In this document: in pieces, positions 2,744-40,604 of the stretch | Layout: every line of letters starts with the position of its first letter | Numbering within the stretch: position 1 is the stretch's first letter | Source: a virus | Taxonomy: Duplodnaviria > Caudoviricetes | Reading direction: 5' to 3' (one strand) | DNA length: 64,000 nt | IMG/VR virus record: IMGVR_UViG_3300026549_000029 | Location: 160,001 to 224,000 of that record | Translations under genes and position numbers: made by a program | The notes under the pieces: generated by a model | Told to the model about the DNA's origin: nothing | The model's input: the letters and a program-made list of their open reading frames with translations, nothing else | The model's database searches: none

Positions 2744-2780
2744 TAATATAATTATATTCTTTAATATATAAATTATTAAT

Positions 2781-2805
2781 CCCCAGCAGGATAATCCTGC
2801 TGGGG
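2781..2805. terminator. Terminator hairpin between convergent genes
   Basis: CCCCAGCAGGA-taa-TCCTGCTGGGG. Confidence 0.75.
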
Positions 2806-2846
2806 TAAATTCTTATAATCTTATTTTTTATATTAAGTTTTATTTT

Positions 2847-3773
2847 TTAGACATTTCCAAGAGGCATATTCTGGTTATACTTTTCAGCAACAGTACCTGC
2901 AAGACTAGCATTACCAAGAATGTCTTTTACAAGACCAGTATTCTCGACAATACCATCATTTCTAGTCTGACCAGTACCATCAGTCTTATAACCACCCTTC
3001 ATAACAGCCCATTCATAATCATTGAAATCAAGAACAATCTTTCTCGGACTACCATTGGTCTGAGAGATATCATTCTGCAGCATCATAGATGCATACTTAT
3101 TGACCTGGTCACCAATGATCGGGAAGCAGTTGAAGGATACATTGATTTCCTGGAATTCAATTGTACCTCTAGTAGAGTTATACAGCTGAGAGTTAGGAGC
3201 CATAGTAGGCTGAGCATTAGCCAGTAGATAAGCTCTCTCAACTTTTCTCATAGTATTATCAGTTACATAATACAAGAAAGTAAATACTTCATACTGAGGA
3301 CCAGGATCTTTATAAACAGTACCAACAAGACCATGATAAGTCTTAGCCTTGCTATAAGGATCTTTAATACCAGTGAGATAATACTGCAGATAATTAGTAA
3401 TAAGGGAACCAGATCTCTCCCAGAATGTCATTTCAACAGTAATGGAAGTATCCATAGTTACGTTATTAATAATCATAAGCTCATTAGTACCATTAGAAAT
3501 AGTACCAGCATCAGCAGTAATATCAGGAATACCAGAAAGACCTCTAAATTCACCTTCCATGATATGGACAAGTCCATCCTGAAGAGTCTTAACTGCAGCA
3601 TTCTTATTAGCAAGCTGAGTCATAAAATCAGGAACACCAACAACAGTAAGGAAGGAGTAACCTGATTCAAAGACATCAAACTGCTTTAAATTGGAAAAAT
3701 CAGTAACGCCTTTCATCAGAGTGTATTCTGTAACACTTCTGGGCATCTTAATATAATTAAGACCAGCAGCCAT
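2847..3773 (-). CDS. Tail tube protein
   Basis: Directly downstream of the sheath gene; 308 aa; highly expressed codon bias; beta-rich ITVEMTFWERSG and EINVSFNC segments; AAGGAGG RBS. Confidence 0.7.
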   Translation of the reverse strand: MAAGLNYIKMPRSVTEYTLMKGVTDFSNLKQFDVFESGYSFLTVVGVPDFMTQLANKNAAVKTLQDGLVHIMEGEFRGLSGIPDITADAGTISNGTNELMIINNVTMDTSITVEMTFWERSGSLITNYLQYYLTGIKDPYSKAKTYHGLVGTVYKDPGPQYEVFTFLYYVTDNTMRKVERAYLLANAQPTMAPNSQLYNSTRGTIEFQEINVSFNCFPIIGDQVNKYASMMLQNDISQTNGSPRKIVLDFNDYEWAVMKGGYKTDGTGQTRNDGIVENTGLVKDILGNASLAGTVAEKYNQNMPLGNV

Positions 3774-3790
3774 ATTTTACTTCCTCCTTA

Positions 3791-5659
3791 TTAATATGCT
3801 GGATTCGAATCAGGGGACCCTTCAATAGCAAAGACATCAAAGATTTCACCCTGCGGGAAGTCCTTATAATAACAATACAGGGAAGCATTGAAGATCTTCT
3901 GAGCAGTCATAACATCATCACGAGTATAGATCAGCTCAATAGACTTAAAGTACTTCTCATAGTAACTAATAACATTATCATGAATCAGCTTCTTATACTG
4001 GGCAAAATCATTTCCATCCATAAGCATGAATCTGATCTTCGGAGTATACCTTCTAATATCCTTGATACACATCTGAGTGATAATGACATTAGAAGAGAAG
4101 CTAAGAGGACCCCAATGATCCTGAGAAGTATAAGTGGACTGAACACTAACAATACCATCATCAGAGGAATAGTTAGCATAGTTTACTCTCAGGTCATCAA
4201 GTTCAGTCTTCATATCTCTGCTAGGAGTAATACGAGGAATAATATTCAAAGTATTACCAACCATTTCAGTGATAATGAAGTTATTGAATTCTCCAGCAAT
4301 AGGAGCATTCGGGTTATTCATATAATGAGATACAAGAAGAGGGGCAATACCATGAAGCATTGTAACCTTAACCTGCTTCTTAGAGAAGTCATCAATAATA
4401 TCATAAGTAGTCATATAGTCACCAACAAACGGACTATGGACCCAATCACTAGAAGTAATCTTATTGATAACTTCATCAATATTATCAGGTTCAAGGCCAA
4501 GATCTCTAAAGTAGAAGAAATCTTCTCTAAATGCAGCAAGATCAACAATAAGACTCTTAACTTCATCAGGATAGTTTGCATCTACACAGAAATCAATCTT
4601 ATGATAATCAAGATCATAGATCTCATCATAAGAATAGAAGAAGTTAGGATCTTCTGCACTCAGAAATGCTGTGGCAGCAGTAATCCAGGCATCAGTAGCA
4701 CCATTTTCACCAGGGAATGGAGCATCACCAAATGAACCATTGTCTCCACCTTTAAGAGTATATCCATAAGTAGAAGACATATCAATACCATCAGCACCAC
4801 TAAAGTCTACAGTAAATGTAGTAAGAGAATTACCCTTCTTATCCTTACCATTCAGAATATCAAGATTATAGAAAGTATCATAATCAATAGTAGTTACACC
4901 ATCAGTAGTGATAGTATAACCAGCTTCTGTAGCAAGCTTATCAACAAAGTTCTGGAAAGATTCTTTGCAGTAAGCAGCATGAAGCTGACCAATAGTAGAC
5001 TTCTGAAGAGCCATATTCTTTTTAGTAGTATAATTATAAGTAATAGCATCAGGATTAAGAGAGAATCTACCGGAATCTACAGTAGTTACCCCTTCAATGT
5101 CCTGAATAGTATAAAGCATAAAATCAAGAGTCTTAGAGCCATCATAATCAGGTGCAATTCTGACGTTCTTATAAGACATACCTCTACCATTATCACAGAT
5201 TACAAACAGAGGGAACTTGGTAGTAGTTTCAAGAGCCTCAGCTGCACCCATAACCTGATCAAAAGTAGCAGCATTCTCAATTTTCTGCTTAGTAAATTTA
5301 ACTTTTACTGATCTAGGAGTAGCATCCTGACCTTCGCCAGAAGCTTCAGTAACAACAATTTCTGCAAGAATGACAAGGTTAGCAAGAGTAGCATCCTCAG
5401 CAACAAGTCTCTTACCAAGAACTCTACCTCCAGCAGCCAGAATCTTATGAGCTTGGATTAAAGGCTGACCATGCTTAAAGAAATCAGCATTATTTCCATA
5501 CATTTTCTTAAAGTCTGTATAAGTGAAATCGGTGATTTCTTCGGTACCCTTATCTGCTGAAAAGACACAAAGAAACAGAGGAAGCGATTCATTATTACTT
5601 TCTGTAACTGCATCGCTCATCAGCACTTCATGCCAATTTACTTTGGTTCCAGCATACAT
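3791..5659 (-). CDS. Tail sheath protein
   Basis: 622 aa; motifs HGQPL, LKGGDNGSFG, DANYP, FREDFF, LDDLRVNY; sheath-tube gene order. Confidence 0.8.
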   Translation of the reverse strand: MYAGTKVNWHEVLMSDAVTESNNESLPLFLCVFSADKGTEEITDFTYTDFKKMYGNNADFFKHGQPLIQAHKILAAGGRVLGKRLVAEDATLANLVILAEIVVTEASGEGQDATPRSVKVKFTKQKIENAATFDQVMGAAEALETTTKFPLFVICDNGRGMSYKNVRIAPDYDGSKTLDFMLYTIQDIEGVTTVDSGRFSLNPDAITYNYTTKKNMALQKSTIGQLHAAYCKESFQNFVDKLATEAGYTITTDGVTTIDYDTFYNLDILNGKDKKGNSLTTFTVDFSGADGIDMSSTYGYTLKGGDNGSFGDAPFPGENGATDAWITAATAFLSAEDPNFFYSYDEIYDLDYHKIDFCVDANYPDEVKSLIVDLAAFREDFFYFRDLGLEPDNIDEVINKITSSDWVHSPFVGDYMTTYDIIDDFSKKQVKVTMLHGIAPLLVSHYMNNPNAPIAGEFNNFIITEMVGNTLNIIPRITPSRDMKTELDDLRVNYANYSSDDGIVSVQSTYTSQDHWGPLSFSSNVIITQMCIKDIRRYTPKIRFMLMDGNDFAQYKKLIHDNVISYYEKYFKSIELIYTRDDVMTAQKIFNASLYCYYKDFPQGEIFDVFAIEGSPDSNPAY

Positions 5660-23406: not shown

Positions 23407-23426
23407 GATATTATAATAATGAAACT
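23407..23426 (+). promoter_or_regulatory. Early-type promoter
   Basis: ATATTATAATAATGAAACT, identical to 58730-58748. Confidence 0.65.
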
Positions 23427-26433: not shown

Positions 26434-27856
26434 ATGGCTATAATTACAAATCCATCAATTCCTATACAAGTACATTATGATTATAATACTAAAAATGAAT
26501 CTTTTATGAAAATGCATTATTTTCTTAAAGCTAAAGGTATTAAAAATAATGCATTTTTTCTACTTCTGTATGATGGTGGTCTTATGGGAGTTAATCCATA
26601 TGATCCAAATTTATCTAGAGAAATGAAAATAAGGATTCTTAGAGAATGTATTGTTAATTTTTGGTATTATATTAGAGAAGTAGCACGTATTCCAGTTGAA
26701 GGCGCTCAATCTAAACGATATGAATTACACAGAGCTAATTTAGCTCTAAACTATATGTTTGTGTATAATATTAATAGTATTAATATTTGGCCCAGGCAAT
26801 TTGGGAAGAGCGTTAGTACGATTCAATATTATCTGTGGTGTTTTAATTTTGGTACTCAAAATAGTAGAATCATATTTAGTAACAAAAAGCACGATGATTC
26901 TAAATCTAATCTTAGATTACTTAAAAACTTTAGATCTGCTTTACCAGAATACCTTAGAATGGATCAAGTAATAGGTCCAGATGGGAAACAGATAAGAGTT
27001 CCTAATAGTTCTGAAACATTGCAAAATCCTATAAACCATAATATGATATCAACATTACCTGGTGCTAGAACAGAAGCTTTAGCTGAGGGTGCAGGAAGAG
27101 GTGCTACAGTTCCCTTATTATATTTCGACGAATTCGCATTTTTACCTTATAACGACGTTGTATATGCAGCAGCAGCTCCTGCATTTTCTACAGCATCACA
27201 AAATGCTAAGAAAAATGGTGCACCTCATAACATAACAATTACAACTACTCCTGGAGATTTAACTACTAAAGAAGGTCAATTTGCTTATAATATGGTTTCT
27301 ATAGCAACACAATGGAATGAAGCATACTATGATTACTCATATGATAAATTAGTAGCATTAATGGAATCTAATAAGCAGTCTAGTTTCATGCATATCAGAT
27401 ACACTTATCAAATGCTTGGTAAAGGTGCTAAATACTTTGATGATATGGTAAGAATGTTTGGTACTGATTATGCTAAGCTTAGAAGAGAAATTTTAATAGA
27501 ATGGTCCAAGATATCTGATAATAGTCCCTTTAATAGAGAAGATCTTGAAGTTATTTCTTCTATGGTTAAGCAAGAACCTCGTTATACACTCTTCTTTGGC
27601 AAGGCCGGACAATTCCAAATGAAATTCTGGGATACTGTTCCAATAGGATCTACATATCCATTATTAATTGGAGTTGATGTATCCTCTGGTGTACATAGAG
27701 ATGCTTCTGCTATTACAGTAGTAGATTCTGAAACTACTAAAGTTATTGCTACATTTAGAAATAACTTTATTACTATGCCAGAATTGGCAGATCTTATATA
27801 TCAATTTGTAACTAATTATGCCAAGAACGCTATTATCTGCGTGGAAAACAACGGAG
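26434..27856 (+). CDS. terL: Terminase large subunit, exon 1
   Basis: Walker A PRQFGKS, Walker B LLYFDE, coupling motif TTTP, nuclease IGVDVSSG...DASA; homology appears to end at VENNG. Confidence 0.9.
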
Positions 27857-28257
27857 CAACTAAAGTCTCACCTAGTAGAGTAATCTGCTATGGTTTCAGT
27901 GTTAATTGCTATGACTCACTGGTTAAGAGCCAAACTTACTACAACGTAGCCTGAAAAGACAAGCGTGAATGTTGAGAAATCAGAAAGAAAAGTTTGGATA
28001 AAGATATGGTTAAATCCTAAGTCTTTGTTAGAAGCCAAGATATAGCAGTGAATTAGCTTCTTTATTTTTATAAATAAAATGCTAAACATTCAACGATCAT
28101 CTCCTTACGGGAGAGTAGAACCTCAAGCTTATGGAGGAAGAAAAATACTGCCCCATATCTTATATATGGGTGAACAAATGATCTGATCACTACTTATAAT
28201 GAGAGTGTCTAGAATTAACTAGAGGGTTTAGCTTGCGACTATTCCTAAACATAAATG
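27857..28257 (+). ncRNA. Group I intron (IA2-like, ~401 nt, no homing endonuclease); boundaries +/-1 nt
   Basis: P2 TAGTAGA-gtaa-TCTGCTA; P AATTGCT and Q TAGCAG; R TTCAACGATCA and S ATGATCT (P7); P3 CAGTGTT/AATACTG; P7.1 CTCC-ttacg-GGAG; P8 CCCATAT/ATATGGG; P9 hairpins; P10 AACTAAA pairs with TTTGGTT; removal restores the frame. Confidence 0.85.
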
Positions 28258-29066
28258 GTTTTGGTTCTTCAGTACTTCAGATGTTGCTCAAAACTTCTAT
28301 TAAGAAAAATCTCTATTATGAAATTAAAGATCGTATGGATGAAGAAGTATTCGATGGTACAGCCGTACGAAGAAAAACTCGTAGAGTAAAAGTTTATGGA
28401 GGCACTTCTTCTAAGTCTACTAGAAATAAACTTATTGAACTTCTTTATCAAAGAGTGCAGCATCATAGAGATAAATTCAATTCTAAAGAAATATATGATG
28501 AACTTTCTACTATGGTAGTTAAACCAAATGGTAAAGTTGAACATGCAGAAGATGCTCATGATGATTTAGTATTCTCTTATTTATGGGCTTTATATATCTT
28601 TTATTATGGTGAAGATCTTGCCACAAGATATCACTTAATGAAGACTGAAATATATACAGATGATCATTATGATGAAACTTCTTATTCTCTTGAAGAAGAG
28701 TATATGGAAGGAGATAATATTGATCCTTCTGTATTTAGAACAGAAGATCCATCTACTCAGTTAGCAGATGAACAGTTAAAAATATTAAATTCTGTAAAGA
28801 GTATTACTTTTGAAGATTTATATAAAAAACAATTATTAGAAGATCAAAAGAGTTTGGATAAAATAAAGAGAACTCCTTATGGAAGAGAAGCTATAAGTAA
28901 TGCATATCATATACCATTAGACCATATAGAAAAAGAAATGAAAATGGGATATGTAGATATATTAGATGATATTAATAAAGAATTTTATGGAAATGATATA
29001 GAAAAAGATCCTAATAAAGATCCTACACTGACAGGAAATTTATCAGATTTATTTAATAGATTATAA
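28258..29066 (+). CDS. terL: Terminase large subunit, exon 2
   Basis: FGSSVL...HAEDAHDDLVFS nuclease C-terminal acidic motif; no RBS of its own. Confidence 0.85.
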
Positions 29067-29079
29067 AAAATAAATATAT

Positions 29080-29111
29080 AGTGAGGAAGGCTAAATACCT
29101 TCCTCACTTTT
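29080..29111 (+). terminator. Intrinsic terminator
   Basis: AGTGAGGAAGG-7-CCTTCCTCACT followed by Ts. Confidence 0.8.
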
Positions 29112-29137: not shown

Positions 29138-29161
29138 AATTATATATTATAATATTGATAA
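29138..29161 (+). promoter_or_regulatory. Early-type promoter
   Basis: 24-mer AATTATATATTATAATATTGATAA; exact reverse complement at 40581-40604. Confidence 0.65.
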
Positions 29162-29196: not shown

Positions 29197-29532
29197 ATGA
29201 CAGAATTTACAATAAATATATTTTATTTAAAAAATTTTGGAGTAATAGAGTTTATTATAAATACAGACATAAATAATCCATATATAATATTGAAAGATCA
29301 GAAAGATAATATTATATCTGAAATATATCTTTTTAAAGCTGAATATAAATCAAATAAAAAATTAAGTAGTATTAATAAAAATAAATTCATAGAATTTTGT
29401 AAATCTATAAATTTAAGTATAAAAGAACATAATGATTTAATAGAAACAAATTGGCAATCTGCATTGCATACATATAATGTGGTAAATAATTTAAATATAT
29501 TATATAAAATGCCAGATTATAATTTATTATAG
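29197..29532 (+). CDS. Hypothetical protein, TNW...PDY family
   Basis: Ends TNWQ...MPDYNLL; related to 39679-40086 and to the remnant at 31352-31489. Confidence 0.7.
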   Translation: MTEFTINIFYLKNFGVIEFIINTDINNPYIILKDQKDNIISEIYLFKAEYKSNKKLSSINKNKFIEFCKSINLSIKEHNDLIETNWQSALHTYNVVNNLNILYKMPDYNLL

Positions 29533-29543
29533 GAGAAAATATA

Positions 29544-30734
29544 ATGAAAGAAATTTTAATCGAAGGAATGTATAATATTGCAAAATGCTTTTGTGTTGAT
29601 AGTGATAAATATGATATTGATCAATATGCTAGAGCACAGATAAAAGCAATATGTAATAATAAAGCATATTCAGATTGTAAGATCAGAATAATGCCTGATG
29701 TTCATGCTGGTAAAGTAGGTCCTATTGGTTTATCTATTATATATAATAGATTCCCTGAAAGAATTATTCCTAATATGATAGGATCTGATATTGGTTGTGG
29801 AGTTTTATTATATAAAATAAAACCTAAAAAGAGAATTACTAAGGGTTTATTACAGGAATTAGATAGTTATATTAGAAATATTATTCCTTATGGATCTAAT
29901 AGACAGAAAGATATTGGAAGTTTAAGATTTGGATTTAATCTTGAATGTGCTGTTGAAAGATTACATAAGAAAGGAATAATTAATTTTGAATTAGGATTAT
30001 CTTATGTAGGAACTTTAGGCGGAGGAAATCATTTTATAGAAATCGATAAAGATGAAGATGATTTCTATTATATTTGTATTCACACTGGTAGTAGATATTT
30101 AGGTCAATGCGTAAATAAATATTACAATGATAAAGGACAAAAATATCTTAAAGATAATGGAATCTTTAGTATTCCATATGAATACACTTATCTGGAGAAT
30201 CACAATTTAAAACGTGATTATCTTGAAAGCACTAGAGACTGTGAAATATTTGCAGAATATAATAGAAAGACTATTGCTAATAAGATCTGTAGTTTTATTA
30301 ATGCAGAGATTATAGATGTAATAGATAATTTTCATAATTATTATGAGAGCTATTCTAAAGATCATAATGAGAAATTTGTGATAAGAAAAGGTTGTATTGC
30401 ATCAGAATTTATTGAGAAGGTTGTAATTCCAATAAATGCAAGAGATGGTATTATTATAGGAAATGGAAAGCATAATGAAGATTGGAATTGCTCAGCTCCT
30501 CATGGAGCAGGTAGAATTATAAAAAGATCTGAAGTTAAAAATACTTATAATACTTCTATGTATAAGAAAGAAATGAAGGGAATTTATTCTACTTCTATTT
30601 CTAAAGATACATTAGATGAAGCTCCTTTTGCTTATAGAGATATTGAGCTTATTAGAGAAGCTATAGAACCTAGTGTAAATATTATTAATATACTTAAACC
30701 AGTATACAATTTTAAAGCTGGAGGAAATGAATAA
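29544..30734 (+). CDS. rtcB: RtcB RNA ligase
   Basis: MPDVHAG, GSDIGCG, GTLGGGNHFIE, IHTGSR, HNY, RKG, SAPHGAGR, DEAPFAY. Confidence 0.95.
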   Translation: MKEILIEGMYNIAKCFCVDSDKYDIDQYARAQIKAICNNKAYSDCKIRIMPDVHAGKVGPIGLSIIYNRFPERIIPNMIGSDIGCGVLLYKIKPKKRITKGLLQELDSYIRNIIPYGSNRQKDIGSLRFGFNLECAVERLHKKGIINFELGLSYVGTLGGGNHFIEIDKDEDDFYYICIHTGSRYLGQCVNKYYNDKGQKYLKDNGIFSIPYEYTYLENHNLKRDYLESTRDCEIFAEYNRKTIANKICSFINAEIIDVIDNFHNYYESYSKDHNEKFVIRKGCIASEFIEKVVIPINARDGIIIGNGKHNEDWNCSAPHGAGRIIKRSEVKNTYNTSMYKKEMKGIYSTSISKDTLDEAPFAYRDIELIREAIEPSVNIINILKPVYNFKAGGNE

Positions 30735-31340
30735 ATGATATTTAGAATATCATCAGGAATAAATCCGCCACCAGAGTGTAATATGGCTATTGATTTATTT
30801 TATAAAAGATTAATAAAAGAAATCAAAGATATTAAATTAATAGATTCTAAAAAATCTAAATTTTCTAATTACAATAGTTCTATAACTTTTATGACAGATG
30901 ATAAAAAGATTAAAGAATATATAGGAACTATAGAATGGATTTGTGAAAGTCCGATAAGAAAAGGTCATAAAAGAAAGAATTGGTTTATCAGTTTATCAGA
31001 GATACCAGAAGTTAAGATTGTAGATTCTGATATTAACTCTAGCAATATAAAAATAGATATATTTAGATCTTCAGGAAATGGAGGACAAAGTGTAAATACT
31101 ACAAATTCTGCTGTAAGAGTAACTCATATTCCTACAGGAATTGTAGTAGAGAATCAAGATGAAAGATCACAATACATGAATAAAAAGAAATGCTTAGAGG
31201 AATTGAATTATAGACTTAATGAAATACAGAAAAAGAATAAAGCCTTCCAAGATAATGAATCTTGGAAGATTGGTAATAATGTAATAAGAGGAAATCCTGT
31301 AAAGATATATGAAGGATTGAATTTTAAATTAAGAAAATAG
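30735..31340 (+). CDS. prfH: Peptide chain release factor H
   Basis: [28 protein letters not shown] (PrfH signature), [21 protein letters not shown]. Confidence 0.9.
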
Positions 31341-31351
31341 TATATAAATAA

Positions 31352-31489
31352 CCATATTATAAATCAATTAATGGTTTAATTTTAACTAATTGGGAAGTTA
31401 TTAGCAAATCTTGGACAGATGCTTTTGGTAAACATTTATCTTATGCAACCATTAAGCCAGATTATACAATTATTAAACCTACAAAATAA
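31352..31489 (+). pseudogene. Start-less C-terminal remnant of a TNW...PDY family gene
   Basis: PYYKSINGLILTNWEVISKSWTDAFGKHLSYATIKPDYTIIKPTK*; preceded by an in-frame TAA; no RBS or ATG. Confidence 0.6.
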
Positions 31490-31505
31490 ATAATAAAAAT
31501 AATTT

Positions 31506-31529
31506 AGCCCAGAGAGAAATCTCTGGGCT
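31506..31529. terminator. Terminator between convergent genes
   Basis: AGCCCAGAGA-gaaa-TCTCTGGGCT followed by a T-run. Confidence 0.8.
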
Positions 31530-31536
31530 TTATTTT

Positions 31537-31938
31537 TTATTTAAATTTTTCTTCATCTAGAAAAATAATATTATCATATTTACAATTGTTTGGATTGCCA
31601 TCTATATTAACTACCTTACAACCTCTCTCTAAATAGCTATCTGGATTTCTTATATAGCTATAAGCCATAAGATCTTTAATAAGAAAGCGTTTTTTAGTAA
31701 AAGATTCTTCTTCTTTTCTTTTACATAATAAATTTACATAAGGATATTTACCTTCATATTCCCATCTTAAATATAAATCATCTGCTATGCAATAAATTTG
31801 TCCATTCTGTGTAATAATATATATACTAGGAAATACATCAGGATTAATTAAATGCTTTGCATCTATAACATTAAAATTTTCATACCCTCTGATGAAAGTT
31901 TTATTTGTTAATAGATCATAATATTCTTCCTTATTCAT
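31537..31938 (-). CDS. Degenerate HNH (I-HmuI-like) endonuclease-fold protein
   Basis: YIITQNGQI, YPYVNL, IKDLMA.SYIRNP, VVNIDGNPNNC..DNI (HRLVA and VNHIDG altered). Confidence 0.6.
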   Translation of the reverse strand: MNKEEYYDLLTNKTFIRGYENFNVIDAKHLINPDVFPSIYIITQNGQIYCIADDLYLRWEYEGKYPYVNLLCKRKEEESFTKKRFLIKDLMAYSYIRNPDSYLERGCKVVNIDGNPNNCKYDNIIFLDEEKFK

Positions 31939-33195: not shown

Positions 33196-34017
33196 TTAGA
33201 AGTAGATATGATAAGTAATATCAATTCCCTTCGTGAGATCAATAAGAGCTTCATTAGGAATATTGAGCTGAGTAAGAGGAATAATATCCTGATACCACTT
33301 ATATCCAGCACCAGAAACATACCAAGCAGTAAGAATAGAGATAGAGTTAATTCTTGCATCATTAATAGAAGAGGTAGCTCTAAAATAATCTCTAAAATCA
33401 TCCTTAGTAATTCTAAGATTAAACTCTACAAAAGTTTCTGCATCAGAAGTATTCTGAGAATCATAAAGAGTAGCATCAATAGGAGTCTCATCTACATATC
33501 TCATATAAAGAGTTGGTTCTGATTCAAAAGCTTTGAAGTAATAAGCAATTCTATTTGCTTCAGCAATAGTTTTTCTTCCAAAATAAATTTCTCTCTCTGC
33601 ATCGGTCAAATCATTCTGAATAAGCTGATATCTAAACGGAACAAGATCTCCAGCAGGTTTAATTCTGTTAGTATACTGTACAGGATATACCTGAGAATTT
33701 TCAGCACCACAACCTTGAGTACCACAGCAGAAAAGACAAGCTTTAGGAATATTATCAGGATTGGAACCATGTTCAGAAGAATTCTCAAGATCAAGAGATT
33801 CATTATAAGTAGGAAGATGTACAAGTTCAGGAAGATCAAATACTTTCTGAGCAACAAATTGCGAACCAGCAATAACTACTTTATTATGAAGAGTAAGAAC
33901 AGGCTCGCCTGTATCAATATTTTTAAAAATAACTTCACCTTTAAGCCAAGTTTTCTTGAGGTTCACATCATCATTCGATTTAGCAAAATCGAATAATGTA
34001 ATATCTTTATTAGGCAT
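33196..34017 (-). CDS. Virion structural protein (baseplate/collar-like)
   Basis: GEV....HNKVV.AG, FCCGT.G; late promoter at 34051-34062. Confidence 0.55.
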   Translation of the reverse strand: MPNKDITLFDFAKSNDDVNLKKTWLKGEVIFKNIDTGEPVLTLHNKVVIAGSQFVAQKVFDLPELVHLPTYNESLDLENSSEHGSNPDNIPKACLFCCGTQGCGAENSQVYPVQYTNRIKPAGDLVPFRYQLIQNDLTDAEREIYFGRKTIAEANRIAYYFKAFESEPTLYMRYVDETPIDATLYDSQNTSDAETFVEFNLRITKDDFRDYFRATSSINDARINSISILTAWYVSGAGYKWYQDIIPLTQLNIPNEALIDLTKGIDITYHIYF

Positions 34018-34050
34018 TATAATTAACCTCCCATAATATGTTAACGTAAT

Positions 34051-34062
34051 TAATTGAATGTT
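34051..34062 (-). promoter_or_regulatory. Late-type promoter
   Basis: AACA TTCAAT TA. Confidence 0.6.
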
Positions 34063-34076
34063 CAGCTAATAAGCTA

Positions 34077-37000
34077 TTATGTATCTATAAATACATGAGC
34101 AGGAAATTCCTGAGTAATAATAGTATAACAGTTATCATAAAGTCTATATGAAGGTTCATAGAGACTTATATTATTACTTATATTCATTATAGATTCTCTA
34201 AGATTTAAAGCATAATTAAGATTAAGAGTAGATATTTTATTTAATGTATCTTTTATATTAGTAATTCTACGATATTTAGTGATAGGTTCAAATACTATAG
34301 AATTACAATATGGACAAGTAGTTGTATTAGATTCTATTTCTTTCCCACAATTAGGGCAGAAATATTTAGTACAACAAATTTCTCCATCATCTAAAGAGAG
34401 ATTCACTAATATTAAACAAGTATCTGCTATCCATTCATTAATATATTCTACTAAATACTTAGTTTCAGTCATACTATCAATAGCTTCTTCTATATTAATA
34501 TTATCTGAATATGTAATATCTACAAGCATATGTAATATAGCATCAACAGCATAAATTTCTAATTGTCTTATATAATGATTATCTGGATTGAATACATCAT
34601 CTTTAAAATAATATGTACTTCTTACATCAGCATAATCTTTAATAGCTTTATTAAAATGGGCATATTTATCAAAAGTAATAGGAACTTTATTTTCTACCCC
34701 ACAATTAGGACATACTGTATCAGAAGCACTTAATTCTGCTCCACATTGAGGGCAATAATAAATAAATTTATGTTTTCCATTATTCTCTAAAGCATTTCTA
34801 TTATTTTCATAATATTCAGAATAATTCTTTCTAAGCCACCAATCCATACTAAACCATACTTTATCTATAAGCTTAGCTCTTTCTTCTTTAGAAAGATTGA
34901 TATTAGCATTAGAAATATAATCTTCAATCTTAATAATATCAGCTTTATCAAATAAGTATTTAATTAATATATGATCTATTAATTGTATATATTGATCGAA
35001 CTTATCATCTATTACATAAATAATGGAAGACTGATGCGTAAATATTTTAAATGATTTGAAGAAGTCTATTACTTCCTCTATATAAGATTTAACAAATTCT
35101 AATGATACAGAAGGTAAACCAGAGAATACATCATCCATATATACTTCTGTCTTATCTTCATCTATATAATCTTTAATATATCCAATAATTTGTTGAATAG
35201 CATTTATACAAGTTTCTTGTCTCTTAGCTTCATCATCAATAGCAGCAACTTGTACTAAGAATTTATAAACATTTCCATCATTATATCTCATAAATTCTGT
35301 ATAAGTACTAGCCATTCTAGCAGTTGCATTTAAAGAAACAAAATCTTCATCTTCTGGATCATAAATATAAAGATCAAATAAATGAGTTTCATCAAAATCA
35401 TCTCTCATTTCAAAATATAAAGTATTTTCATCACAAGTACTAGTAAGACATTTCATATCATATTCATAGACATCAGGGTTCTGATAATTCTCTGGTCTAG
35501 GAATATTAATGAATTTAGTAGTATATCCATTAGCTTTATATGTATCTACTACATCATTATCTCCTACTAAGAAATACTCCATATTTCTATTCATAATAAA
35601 TAAAGTTTTATATAAATATCTATAAGCATCATATACTTCTTTACTAGGAGGATTAGCCATAACTTCTAATACATGTTTATAGATATCTCTGTTATTTAAA
35701 AATATAGCTCTTAATTCTTCAAAACTATATATCTTTTCATCTGGAATAGTAAATCCAGGTCTTTCTACAGCATCATGCCCATATGACAATTCTTCTAAAG
35801 TTAATCCTCTATGATTTTCATGCAAATACTGTGCTATAGTAGCAAAATCTGCTTCCATATTAAATCCTAGTATTTCTGCTACTTTAGACCTACTATCTAA
35901 AATAGTATCTTCTACTCCATAATAGATATATCCAAGAGAATATAATGCTAAAATAGCATTTACTAATTCTACTTTCTTAGTAGTAGATATATTAGGTAAG
36001 CTAATTCTTAAAGCAGATTTATCTATTTTATTATACATAAGAATATTCATAAAATAGACAAGAGAGAAATTTCTTTGTGCTAAATCTATAACAGCTTCTA
36101 TAGTATAATATTTAGATCTTAATATTGTAAAATCTAAATCTTTAACTCCAGATTTTACAGTATCATAAGTTTTATCACCAACCCAATAAGCATCAGGTAC
36201 AGTAAGCTCATCATATTCTAAAATATTAGAATCTTTCTTAGCATAATTATCATAAATTTGATCTAAAAGAGGAACTTTAATAAACTTAATATCATAATTA
36301 GAATCATTATCTGTTACTATATCTTTAGTTCCATCTTCATTAGTAATTACTTTAGTATTACTATAATAATCTAAATCGTCTGGATTATTTACATTATGAT
36401 CTTTTAAAATATAATATTTAAAAGCATTTATATTTCTAAATCCAAATATTGATATAATATCTACAATACATTTATCTGTAGATTTAAATTTAATCAATTT
36501 ATTAAGATTCTTTACAAGAGAAATTTGATATCTAAGAGGAATATCATTAAAATATTTAACCCCATTAGATTCGAAAATATATTTACAGGTTCTTGTATCA
36601 AATACATCTCTTCTAATTAAATATTCTGGTAATTCTACTATCATATCAATAATAGTTTGAATAATAAGAAATACCATCATAAAATTATCATAATAATCAG
36701 ATCTATATTTATAAGCTTCAGAATATACTGTATAAAGTAAATATAATCTATTAGCTTCTAATAAATCTTTATATCTTGTTCTTACCTCATCTGAATCACA
36801 AGAAGGACAATAAAGCATAGCAAACTTCTCTGCTACCCTAGCATCATAATAATCTACTTGCCTATCGCCCATATGAAGTAAATAAATTACATCATCTTTT
36901 GTTAATTCATTAGAAATTAGCCAAGATTCATTATTTACAATATTTTCTAATGTACCATTAGAATCAAGAATAATCTGCTTAGATAATGATAATTCATGAA

Positions 37001-40580: not shown

Positions 40581-40604
40581 TTATCAATATTATAATATAT
40601 AATT
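40581..40604 (-). promoter_or_regulatory. Early-type promoter
   Basis: Identical 24-mer to 29138-29161; overlaps a 16-bp inverted repeat at 40556-40593. Confidence 0.65.

Follow-up and report, generated by a model that had tools for sequence, protein, structure and literature searches.

Does a bacteriophage that encodes the RNA ligase RtcB directly in front of the release factor homologue PrfH possess the means to put damaged host ribosomes back to work? The question is raised by the 287,868-bp genome of an uncultured jumbo phage, the IMG/VR virus record IMGVR_UViG_3300026549_000029, which is rated complete by CheckV and of which bases 160001–224000, a stretch of 64,000 nucleotides called the window below, were analyzed. 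The window has a base composition of 27.7% G+C and contains the large terminase gene (terL), genes for phage RNA polymerase (RNAP) beta-like proteins, one of which is phrog_2962, and further phage genes. With a probability of roughly 0.6, rtcB and prfH belong to an accessory, early-transcribed unit led by an open reading frame (ORF) named ORF111, and this unit most likely keeps host ribosomes working during infection; of this reading, we infer the early timing, the rRNA target of the ligase, placed below in clade III of the RtcB family, and the source of the damage.

The rtcB–prfH pair and its PrfH protein

A sequence-only reading of this locus had described an intact rtcB abutting an intact prfH at a TAA-ATG junction, and both ORFs were confirmed with exact coordinates:

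29544–30734, plus strand: rtcB, intact, 396 amino acids; PF01139 at 167.8 bits, phrog_1075 at 332 bits
30735–31340, plus strand: prfH, intact, 201 amino acids; PF00472 at 99 bits (cut-off 35)

The junction reads GAA TAA ATG, and GGAGGA precedes the prfH start codon by a few bases. The motifs named in the same reading are all present, namely DVHAG and TLDEAP in RtcB and, in PrfH, GGQ at residues 116–118 and a 17-residue PrfH motif at residues 68–84.

The PrfH profile TIGR03072, with a cut-off of 166.65 bits, gives the window protein 166.1 bits and, in the genome search, 165.5 bits; the orthologues in the phage contigs L002, L003 and L004 score 170–178 bits, above the cut-off. The best matches in the PDB are PrfH of Capnocytophaga gingivalis (9mor, E = 1.7e-30) and PrfH of Escherichia coli (EcPrfH; 7sa4, E = 1e-29), and both alignments span residues 4–5 to 197–198, whereas RF1 and RF2 match the GGQ half only. 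The protein of 201 residues has no match to PCRF and lacks domain 1. When 23 viral and bacterial PrfH sequences are aligned, GGQ is invariant, as are S72, R75, R80, K81, N82, W83 and F84 of the motif SP.R..H.RKNWF at residues 72–84, and H78 is kept in at least 90% of them. In the locus scans, this motif told true PrfH from RF1-, RF2- and ArfB-like matches.

In the EcPrfH pocket for the cut 3' end of 16S rRNA, R83, H86 and R88 bind the phosphate, R88 also stacks on the ribose and R189 on the base, and K89 contacts G530 (Tian et al. 2022, PMC9304027). The phmmer alignment to 7sa4 pairs R83, H86, R88, R189 and K89 with R75, H78, R80, R185 and K81 of phage PrfH, which are invariant or nearly so among the 23 sequences. 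The C-terminal residue of phage PrfH, 201, aligns with residue 201 of the 204 of EcPrfH, so that phage PrfH is without the basic tail of the PrfH-CT subfamily, and no counterpart of the basic C-terminal helix of PrfH-CT, which extends some 25 residues past the end of EcPrfH, was found in it. This tail lets PrfH-CT rescue intact ribosomes as well (bioRxiv 10.1101/2025.01.09.632186); tail-less EcPrfH acts on damaged, not on intact, ribosomes, and PrfH-CT is the only subfamily to rescue intact stalled ones. From its sequence, phage PrfH is best classed as a true member of the PrfH family, and the conserved pocket for the phosphate of A1493 together with the missing tail would argue against a role as a general rescue factor.

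Placement of the ligase in a third RtcB clade

Residues D82, C85, N162, H163 and H180 of phage RtcB align with D75, C78, N167, H168 and H185 of E. coli RtcB1 (EcRtcB1), and R184, H264, H320 and R324 with R189, H281, H337 and R341. The counterparts of D82, C85, H163, H180 and H264 in E. coli RtcB make up the metal-binding set, and that of H320 is the nucleophilic histidine. H320 aligns also with H294 of E. coli RtcB2 (EcRtcB2), the histidine mutated by Tian et al. (PMC9304027). By this alignment, the catalytic set of phage RtcB is intact.

Family profiles place the ligase with neither E. coli enzyme. The window RtcB scores 139 bits with NF007153 (cut-off 407), 105 bits with TIGR03073 (cut-off 271.8) and 107 bits with NF052663; as controls, EcRtcB2 scores 643, 618 and 86 bits and EcRtcB1 173, 144 and 456 bits with the same three profiles, and mycobacteriophage and Erwinia phage RtcB proteins reach 397–419 bits with NF052663. 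A tree of 45 RtcB sequences, computed by a quick IQ-TREE run with support from the Shimodaira–Hasegawa-like approximate likelihood ratio test (SH-aLRT), contains four deep clades: an EcRtcB2-like clade (100%), a clade of long, PrfH-linked ligases of Bacteroidota (100%), an EcRtcB1-like clade that takes in Erwinia and Caulobacter phage ligases (97%), and clade III (100%). Clade III comprises a Haloarcula virus ligase, solo ligases of Listeria, Bacillus and Enterococcus phages, and all PrfH-linked ligases resembling that of the window. Within it, the PrfH-linked ligases form a sub-clade of their own, apart from the solo phage ligases, and the window RtcB lies in a virus-only sub-clade (96%). The closest cellular RtcB proteins, also PrfH-linked, come from a Lachnospiraceae metagenome-assembled genome and a short contig binned as Myxococcota (98%).

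These comparisons assign the window ligase to a third clade, of neither the RtcB2 nor the RtcB1 type. The sequence-only reading, which took the ligase motifs for those of canonical RtcB rather than of RtcB2, was thus right to set RtcB2 aside, as TIGR03073, NF007153 and the tree all indicate, and went astray in calling the ligase canonical in the sense of EcRtcB1, since it belongs to clade III instead. A single clade of all PrfH-linked ligases is rejected by the approximately unbiased test with p = 1.6e-77 for a group that was defined after the tree had been seen. Because the PrfH-linked ligases of Bacteroidota fall into a deep clade of their own, the partner ligases of PrfH are polyphyletic. 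The Bacteroidota ligases (L087, L089, L090, L094 and L096–L098) are 465–500 amino acids long, and their clade includes a solo paralogue, L167, in Chitinophaga. A separate observation concerns contig L003, whose RtcB (2749–3987) is 46% identical to the window RtcB, yet whose PrfH is 75% identical to the window PrfH; either the two genes evolve at very unequal rates or the ligase was exchanged inside the cassette.

Inheritance of the pair and its cellular relatives

When RF-like proteins are used to root the PrfH tree, the PrfH proteins encoded beside clade III ligases form one clade (91% support), which requires one change of partner type, fewer than any of 500 shuffles required, and those beside EcRtcB2-type ligases form another (94%). 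The partner type maps onto this tree with the minimum number of changes, and none of 200 shuffles gave as low a number. Since the PrfH clades follow the ligase type, the pair has been inherited together, as a cassette, within each lineage. The phylogeny of both genes, proposed earlier as a check, thus yields PrfH and ligase trees that agree at the clade level, and the partner switches between PrfH and ligase clades appear from these trees to be old. A derivation of the two genes from different sources holds for their deep history alone. A recent joining of prfH to a resident phage ligase was considered and is unsupported, in that the trees agree at the clade level and both genes have a phage-like composition.

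On Lachnospiraceae and other Clostridia chromosomes, the pair has glutamine synthetase III, MatE, PfkB, Jag/KhpB and MBOAT genes as neighbors. The possibility that these bacterial clade III pairs are mis-binned phage contigs was rejected on account of such chromosomal housekeeping neighbors. A clade III ligase with PrfH is thus a pair type native to Clostridia, which these phages share, and not an odd hybrid made by a phage; the shared pair type would point to Bacillota hosts.

Phage origin, selection and optional presence

The sequence-only reading had named a chimeric host fragment as one outcome that would overturn it. This explanation is rejected by phage-like composition, selection and conserved synteny. 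The GC content of rtcB and prfH is 26–27% and that of their third codon positions (GC3) 0.12–0.16, like terL and the RNAP gene. In this genome, an origin of prfH from a GC-richer pool is not borne out. Compared with the L002 orthologues, the ratio of non-synonymous to synonymous substitution rates (dN/dS) is 0.19 for prfH and 0.31 for rtcB, with 0.11 for the neighboring RNAP gene, and the orthologues compared are 66–77% identical; both genes are under purifying selection. The gene order terL, cassette, HNH endonuclease gene, RNAP beta-like gene recurs on independent contigs from other samples.

Presence and absence of the cassette were compared among contigs whose RNAP beta-like protein is 76–87% identical to that of the window. 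L195, L199, L201 and L204 carry the cassette; in L196 (274 kb) and L209 it is absent between the same flanks, with terL directly adjoining the HNH gene; and in L198, L200 and L203 the slot is filled by unrelated ORFs. The cassette site is thus a variable accessory slot. Such a pattern of presence, absence and replacement is typical of counter-defense cargo, which suggests that the cassette belongs to this class. Family searches with the slot-filling ORFs and with two ORFs lying between rtcB and prfH in L004 gave a single match, to an LPD28 domain in a small ORF. In L004 (166 kb; 3993–5017), these two small ORFs encode 179 and 162 amino acids, and an AAA ATPase gene follows prfH; the extra ORFs may represent an accessory accretion around the pair. 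The HNH endonuclease-like ORF of the window (31537–31938, minus strand) has weak PHROG matches (E about 2e-4), is kept between the slot and the RNAP beta-like gene in all close relatives, and might add to the variability of the adjoining slot.

Distribution of phage-borne PrfH

None of 50,697 phage records has a match covering at least 80% of PrfH, and a search of cultured-phage DNA with the 3-kb region returned no match. In IMG/VR, a scan by peptide pattern and tblastn recovered some 23 separate contigs that encode a true PrfH, which is a lower bound because the scan needs exact peptide patterns. About 12 of these contigs have prfH adjacent to a clade III ligase, one to a clade IIIb ligase and four to an EcRtcB2-type ligase; the remaining ones have no ligase within the fetched flank. 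L013 (607 kb), L014, L017 and L024 are IMG/VR contigs with PrfH and an EcRtcB2-type ligase, and may be viral, prophage or bacterial. With no near-full match in the phage records and some 23 IMG/VR contigs, the earlier remark that the prfH pairing is little known in phages holds.

The literature gives a similar picture. PrfH goes unmentioned in a comparative review that covers 224 jumbo phages and lists RtcB and Pth2, and a survey of release-factor evolution regards PrfH–RtcB as a bacterial system, the word phage being absent from its text. No account of a phage-borne pair came up in full-text searches that combined PrfH or 'release factor H' with phage. Thus the bacterial pair is already known, and the phage version, as recognized here by its sequence, appears to be without a published description among the sources found.

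Transcription of the cassette

The following features frame the pair:

29080–29108, both strands: bidirectional hairpin terminator, 11–12-bp stem with 6 GC pairs, T runs on both strands
29143–29157, plus strand: phage promoter motif TATATTAT-AATATT-G, 38 nucleotides before ORF111, with a start predicted at G29157 by analogy with phage AR9
29197–29532, plus strand: ORF111, 111 amino acids, leading gene of the unit; GC 16%, GC3 10%
29451–29478, plus strand: best sigma-70-like match, TTGGCA-16-TATAAT (11/12), within the 3' end of ORF111
31506–31529, both strands: bidirectional hairpin terminator, 10-bp stem with 6 GC pairs, followed by TTATTTTTTA on the plus strand

Terminator-like sites are well above expectation in the region (5 found, 0.3 expected). 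The upstream hairpin is predicted to close the terminase gene and to insulate the cassette from upstream transcription, and comparable hairpins lie 5' of the promoter motif in L195, L003 and L199. The downstream hairpin with its T run would close both the cassette and the convergent HNH gene, as the earlier claim of a terminator at the end of the cassette had it. Between the two strong hairpins lie ORF111, rtcB and prfH, and since the promoter motif is located 5' of ORF111, the unit consists of three genes, not two. ORF111 has no match in Pfam or PHROGs, nothing usable in the ESM Atlas and only a weak match in PADLOC, and it was not found 5' of rtcB in the relatives L195 and L003. The stretch from prfH to the terminator contains an open frame that lacks a start codon (31383–31490, plus strand) and may be a remnant of two small ORFs found 3' of prfH in L195.

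The strict form of the promoter motif, ATATTATAATATTGA, is located at 29144–29158 on the plus strand. Genome-wide, 25 copies of the strict motif ATATTATAATWWTGA compare with 0.3 in Markov controls, an approximately 80-fold enrichment, and 22 of the 25 copies lie at most 100 nucleotides 5' of an ORF on the same strand. L195 and L003 show the same succession of hairpin and motif, there directly 5' of rtcB. The early promoter consensus of the Bacillus jumbo phage AR9 has been defined experimentally as AAATATATATTAT-N6-G(+1), and early transcription of AR9 is attributed to an injected virion RNAP (PMC5312081). The cassette motif matches this virion-RNAP early consensus, of the AR9/phiKZ type, in the extended AT-rich form TATATTAT-N6-G, and so the analogy with AR9 supports the designation of an early-type promoter, suggesting that the cassette is served by one. 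Copies of the motif in the window start at 23408, 29144 and 58730 on the plus strand and at 40598 and 51117 on the minus strand, and ATATTATAATWWTGA could be used to delineate the early regulon in this group of phages.

The sequence-only reading had placed the pair behind an early-type promoter. The phage motif and its likeness to AR9 agree with this claim, which needs correction in that the promoter drives ORF111 first. Sigma-70-like matches are at chance level (29 found in the region, 27.2 expected). The match at 29451–29478 is a possible internal host-type promoter for rtcB; because sigma-70-like matches are not above chance, it is not relied on.

Other features of the phage genome

The upstream neighbor terL (26434–29066) is interrupted. 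Homology to the intact TerL of 749 amino acids in L195 ends at 27858 and restarts at 28257 at the same residue, 482, leaving an intervening stretch (27859–28256) of 398 nucleotides that is ORF-less and richer in GC. The gene is split in the same way in L196, L200 and L201, and also in L198 and L203, where the N-terminal part is shortened; it is intact in L195 and L199. The gap resembles an intron, yet its fold z-score is only -1.66, and a search of it against Rfam at E values up to 1 gave nothing credible, as did an Rfam scan of the entire window at gathering thresholds. Outside the window, the genome encodes five tRNAs (Pro-TGG, Met-CAT, Gln-TTG, Lys-TTT and Leu-TAA) at genome positions 33915–36037. 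A genome search found no tmRNA, no tubulin, no second RtcB and no other RF-family gene, and no Rnl-type ligase above the cut-off.

Plausible mechanism and rival explanations

The bacterial pair undoes ColE3- and CdiA-type damage in vivo (PMC9304027; PMC9223846): PrfH frees the ribosomes cut between A1493 and G1494, and RtcB reseals the 30S subunit (PMC9304027). Analogy suggests, as the most economical reading, that the phage replays this bacterial order of events. A ribotoxin would cut 16S rRNA between A1493 and G1494; it could be a host abortive-infection or toxin–antitoxin effector, or a competitor's colicin E3- or CdiA-type toxin. The cut ribosome would then stall with an empty A site. Phage PrfH would enter the A site, recognize the 3'-phosphate end at A1493 and hydrolyze the peptidyl-tRNA by its GGQ loop, after which the subunits could separate, and phage RtcB would finally reseal the 3'-phosphate and 5'-OH ends of the free 30S subunit.

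Several observations weigh against such a ribosome-repair function. The window ligase lies outside the EcRtcB2 clade, which has 100% support, and a specificity for the damaged 30S subunit has been shown for no ligase other than EcRtcB2; the closest cultured relatives of the phage ligase are solo phage RtcB proteins that are usually read as tRNA ligases. In PrfH, the TIGR03072 score is about 0.5 bits under the cut-off, and G77 replaces H85 of EcPrfH, a residue with a single contact to C1054. The activity of the cassette is deduced from sequence comparison, and the label 'early' from the likeness of the motif to that of AR9, a distantly related phage. On the side of the damage, no anti-phage system with a 16S rRNA cut at A1493/G1494 came up in literature searches; defenses that cut rRNA exist, among them the type IX retron and HEPN-MNT, but no report of a decoding-centre cut was found for either, and the mapped 16S fragment of the type IX retron, A815–U863, lies elsewhere.

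The main rival explanation, judged rather unlikely, is that RtcB reseals tRNAs cut by anticodon nucleases of the PrrC, PARIS, retron or HEPN type, PrfH merely clearing ribosomes that have stalled for want of tRNA. It would suit a ligase that shares its clade with solo Listeria, Bacillus and Enterococcus phage RtcB proteins of 35–40% identity and stands outside the 30S-specific EcRtcB2 clade, phage RtcB proteins being generally read as tRNA ligases (PMC7824862), and a phage with five tRNA genes, those for Lys and Leu among them. However, the PrfH pocket for the cut A1493 end is fully conserved, the likewise tail-less EcPrfH works on damaged ribosomes only, and the clade III ligases adjacent to PrfH form a sub-clade separate from the solo phage ligases.

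Two further explanations have less in their favor. It is improbable that the cassette limits collateral damage from a ribosome-cutting toxin made by the phage itself or by a co-resident element for host shut-off or for the exclusion of other phages. Early expression would suit such a take-over program, and ORF111 and many neighboring genes have no known function; but a genome search, made without a positive control, turned up no colicin E3-type domain, the cassette-less relatives keep the same flanks, and on bacterial chromosomes the pair stands alone. Most improbable of all is passenger DNA, a host operon acquired only recently or a chimeric assembly, in either case without a part in infection. 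Although the pair is native to Clostridia chromosomes and the cassette is optional among related phages, its GC and GC3 match those of the phage, phage orthologues of 66–77% identity give dN/dS values clearly below 1, the unit has a terminator on either side and a promoter of the phage type, the order terL–cassette–HNH–RNAP is found again on independent contigs from other samples, and the phage RtcB proteins make up a virus-only sub-clade with 96% support.

Ribosome repair during infection remains the preferred reading, and a broader hypothesis, which is tentative and has somewhat less than an even chance of being correct, can be built on it. Phages of gut Clostridia may face an undescribed immunity, or an inter-bacterial attack, that cuts the 16S decoding centre, and may answer it with a virus-adapted PrfH–ligase cassette in which the partner of PrfH comes from another RtcB clade than EcRtcB2; the RtcB family would then have gained its specificity for ribosome repair, by new origin or by transfer, three times or more.

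Implications

T4 tRNA repair is the textbook case of a virus undoing the action of a host suicide nuclease. If the ribosome-repair reading is true, the phage-borne PrfH–RtcB pair would be the ribosome counterpart of that system, cutting of the 16S decoding centre would matter in phage infection and not just in bacterial warfare, and the search for unknown defense effectors would be directed to Clostridia and Bacteroidales hosts. The partnership of PrfH with ligases of at least three deep RtcB clades leads to the testable question of how an RtcB comes to be ribosome-specific. Given its small size, the cassette lends itself to direct assay in the published E. coli toxin-rescue systems.

Comparison with known systems

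The E. coli rtcB2–prfH operon of the ATCC 25922 and CFT073 type (PMC9304027, PMC9223846) has the same order, with the ligase gene first and prfH tightly coupled behind it. The two PrfH proteins are similar in length (204 residues in E. coli, 201 in the phage), are both without domain 1 and without a tail, and share the lesion-binding residues and GGQ, and the two ligases share their catalytic residues. Unlike the E. coli operon, the phage cassette is viral, has a phage promoter and contains an extra leading ORF. Its ligase belongs to another deep RtcB clade, with phmmer scores of 59 bits to EcRtcB2 and 120 bits to EcRtcB1, and its PrfH is about 30% identical to EcPrfH, with glycine in place of H85. 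The PrfH-CT–RtcB system of C. gingivalis (bioRxiv 10.1101/2025.01.09.632186; PDB 9mor), which supplies the best PDB match to phage PrfH, resembles the phage pair in that PrfH is partnered by a ligase that is not EcRtcB2-like. C. gingivalis PrfH has the basic C-terminal helix and also rescues intact non-stop ribosomes, whereas phage PrfH is without the helix, and the Bacteroidota ligases of 465–500 amino acids form a separate clade from the phage ligase of 396 amino acids in clade III.

The closest cellular relatives of both genes are the chromosomal pairs of Lachnospiraceae and other Clostridia (L086, L092), which have the same pair type and order; these pairs are cellular, lie in housekeeping surroundings, and encode PrfH proteins about 36–42% identical to phage PrfH. 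The solo RtcB proteins of Herelleviridae (Listeria phage LMTA-34, Bacillus phage Goe8 and Enterococcus phage 163) also belong to clade III, are 35–36% identical to the phage ligase and are similar in length, but no prfH adjoins their genes and they are presumed to be tRNA repair enzymes. The repair of PrrC-cut tRNA-Lys by Pnkp and Rnl1 of T4 (PMC7824862) uses other enzymes and another chemistry, acts on tRNA instead of rRNA and involves no ribosome-rescue factor, yet its logic is the same as that proposed for the phage cassette: the phage mends a component of translation that a suicide nuclease of the host has cut.

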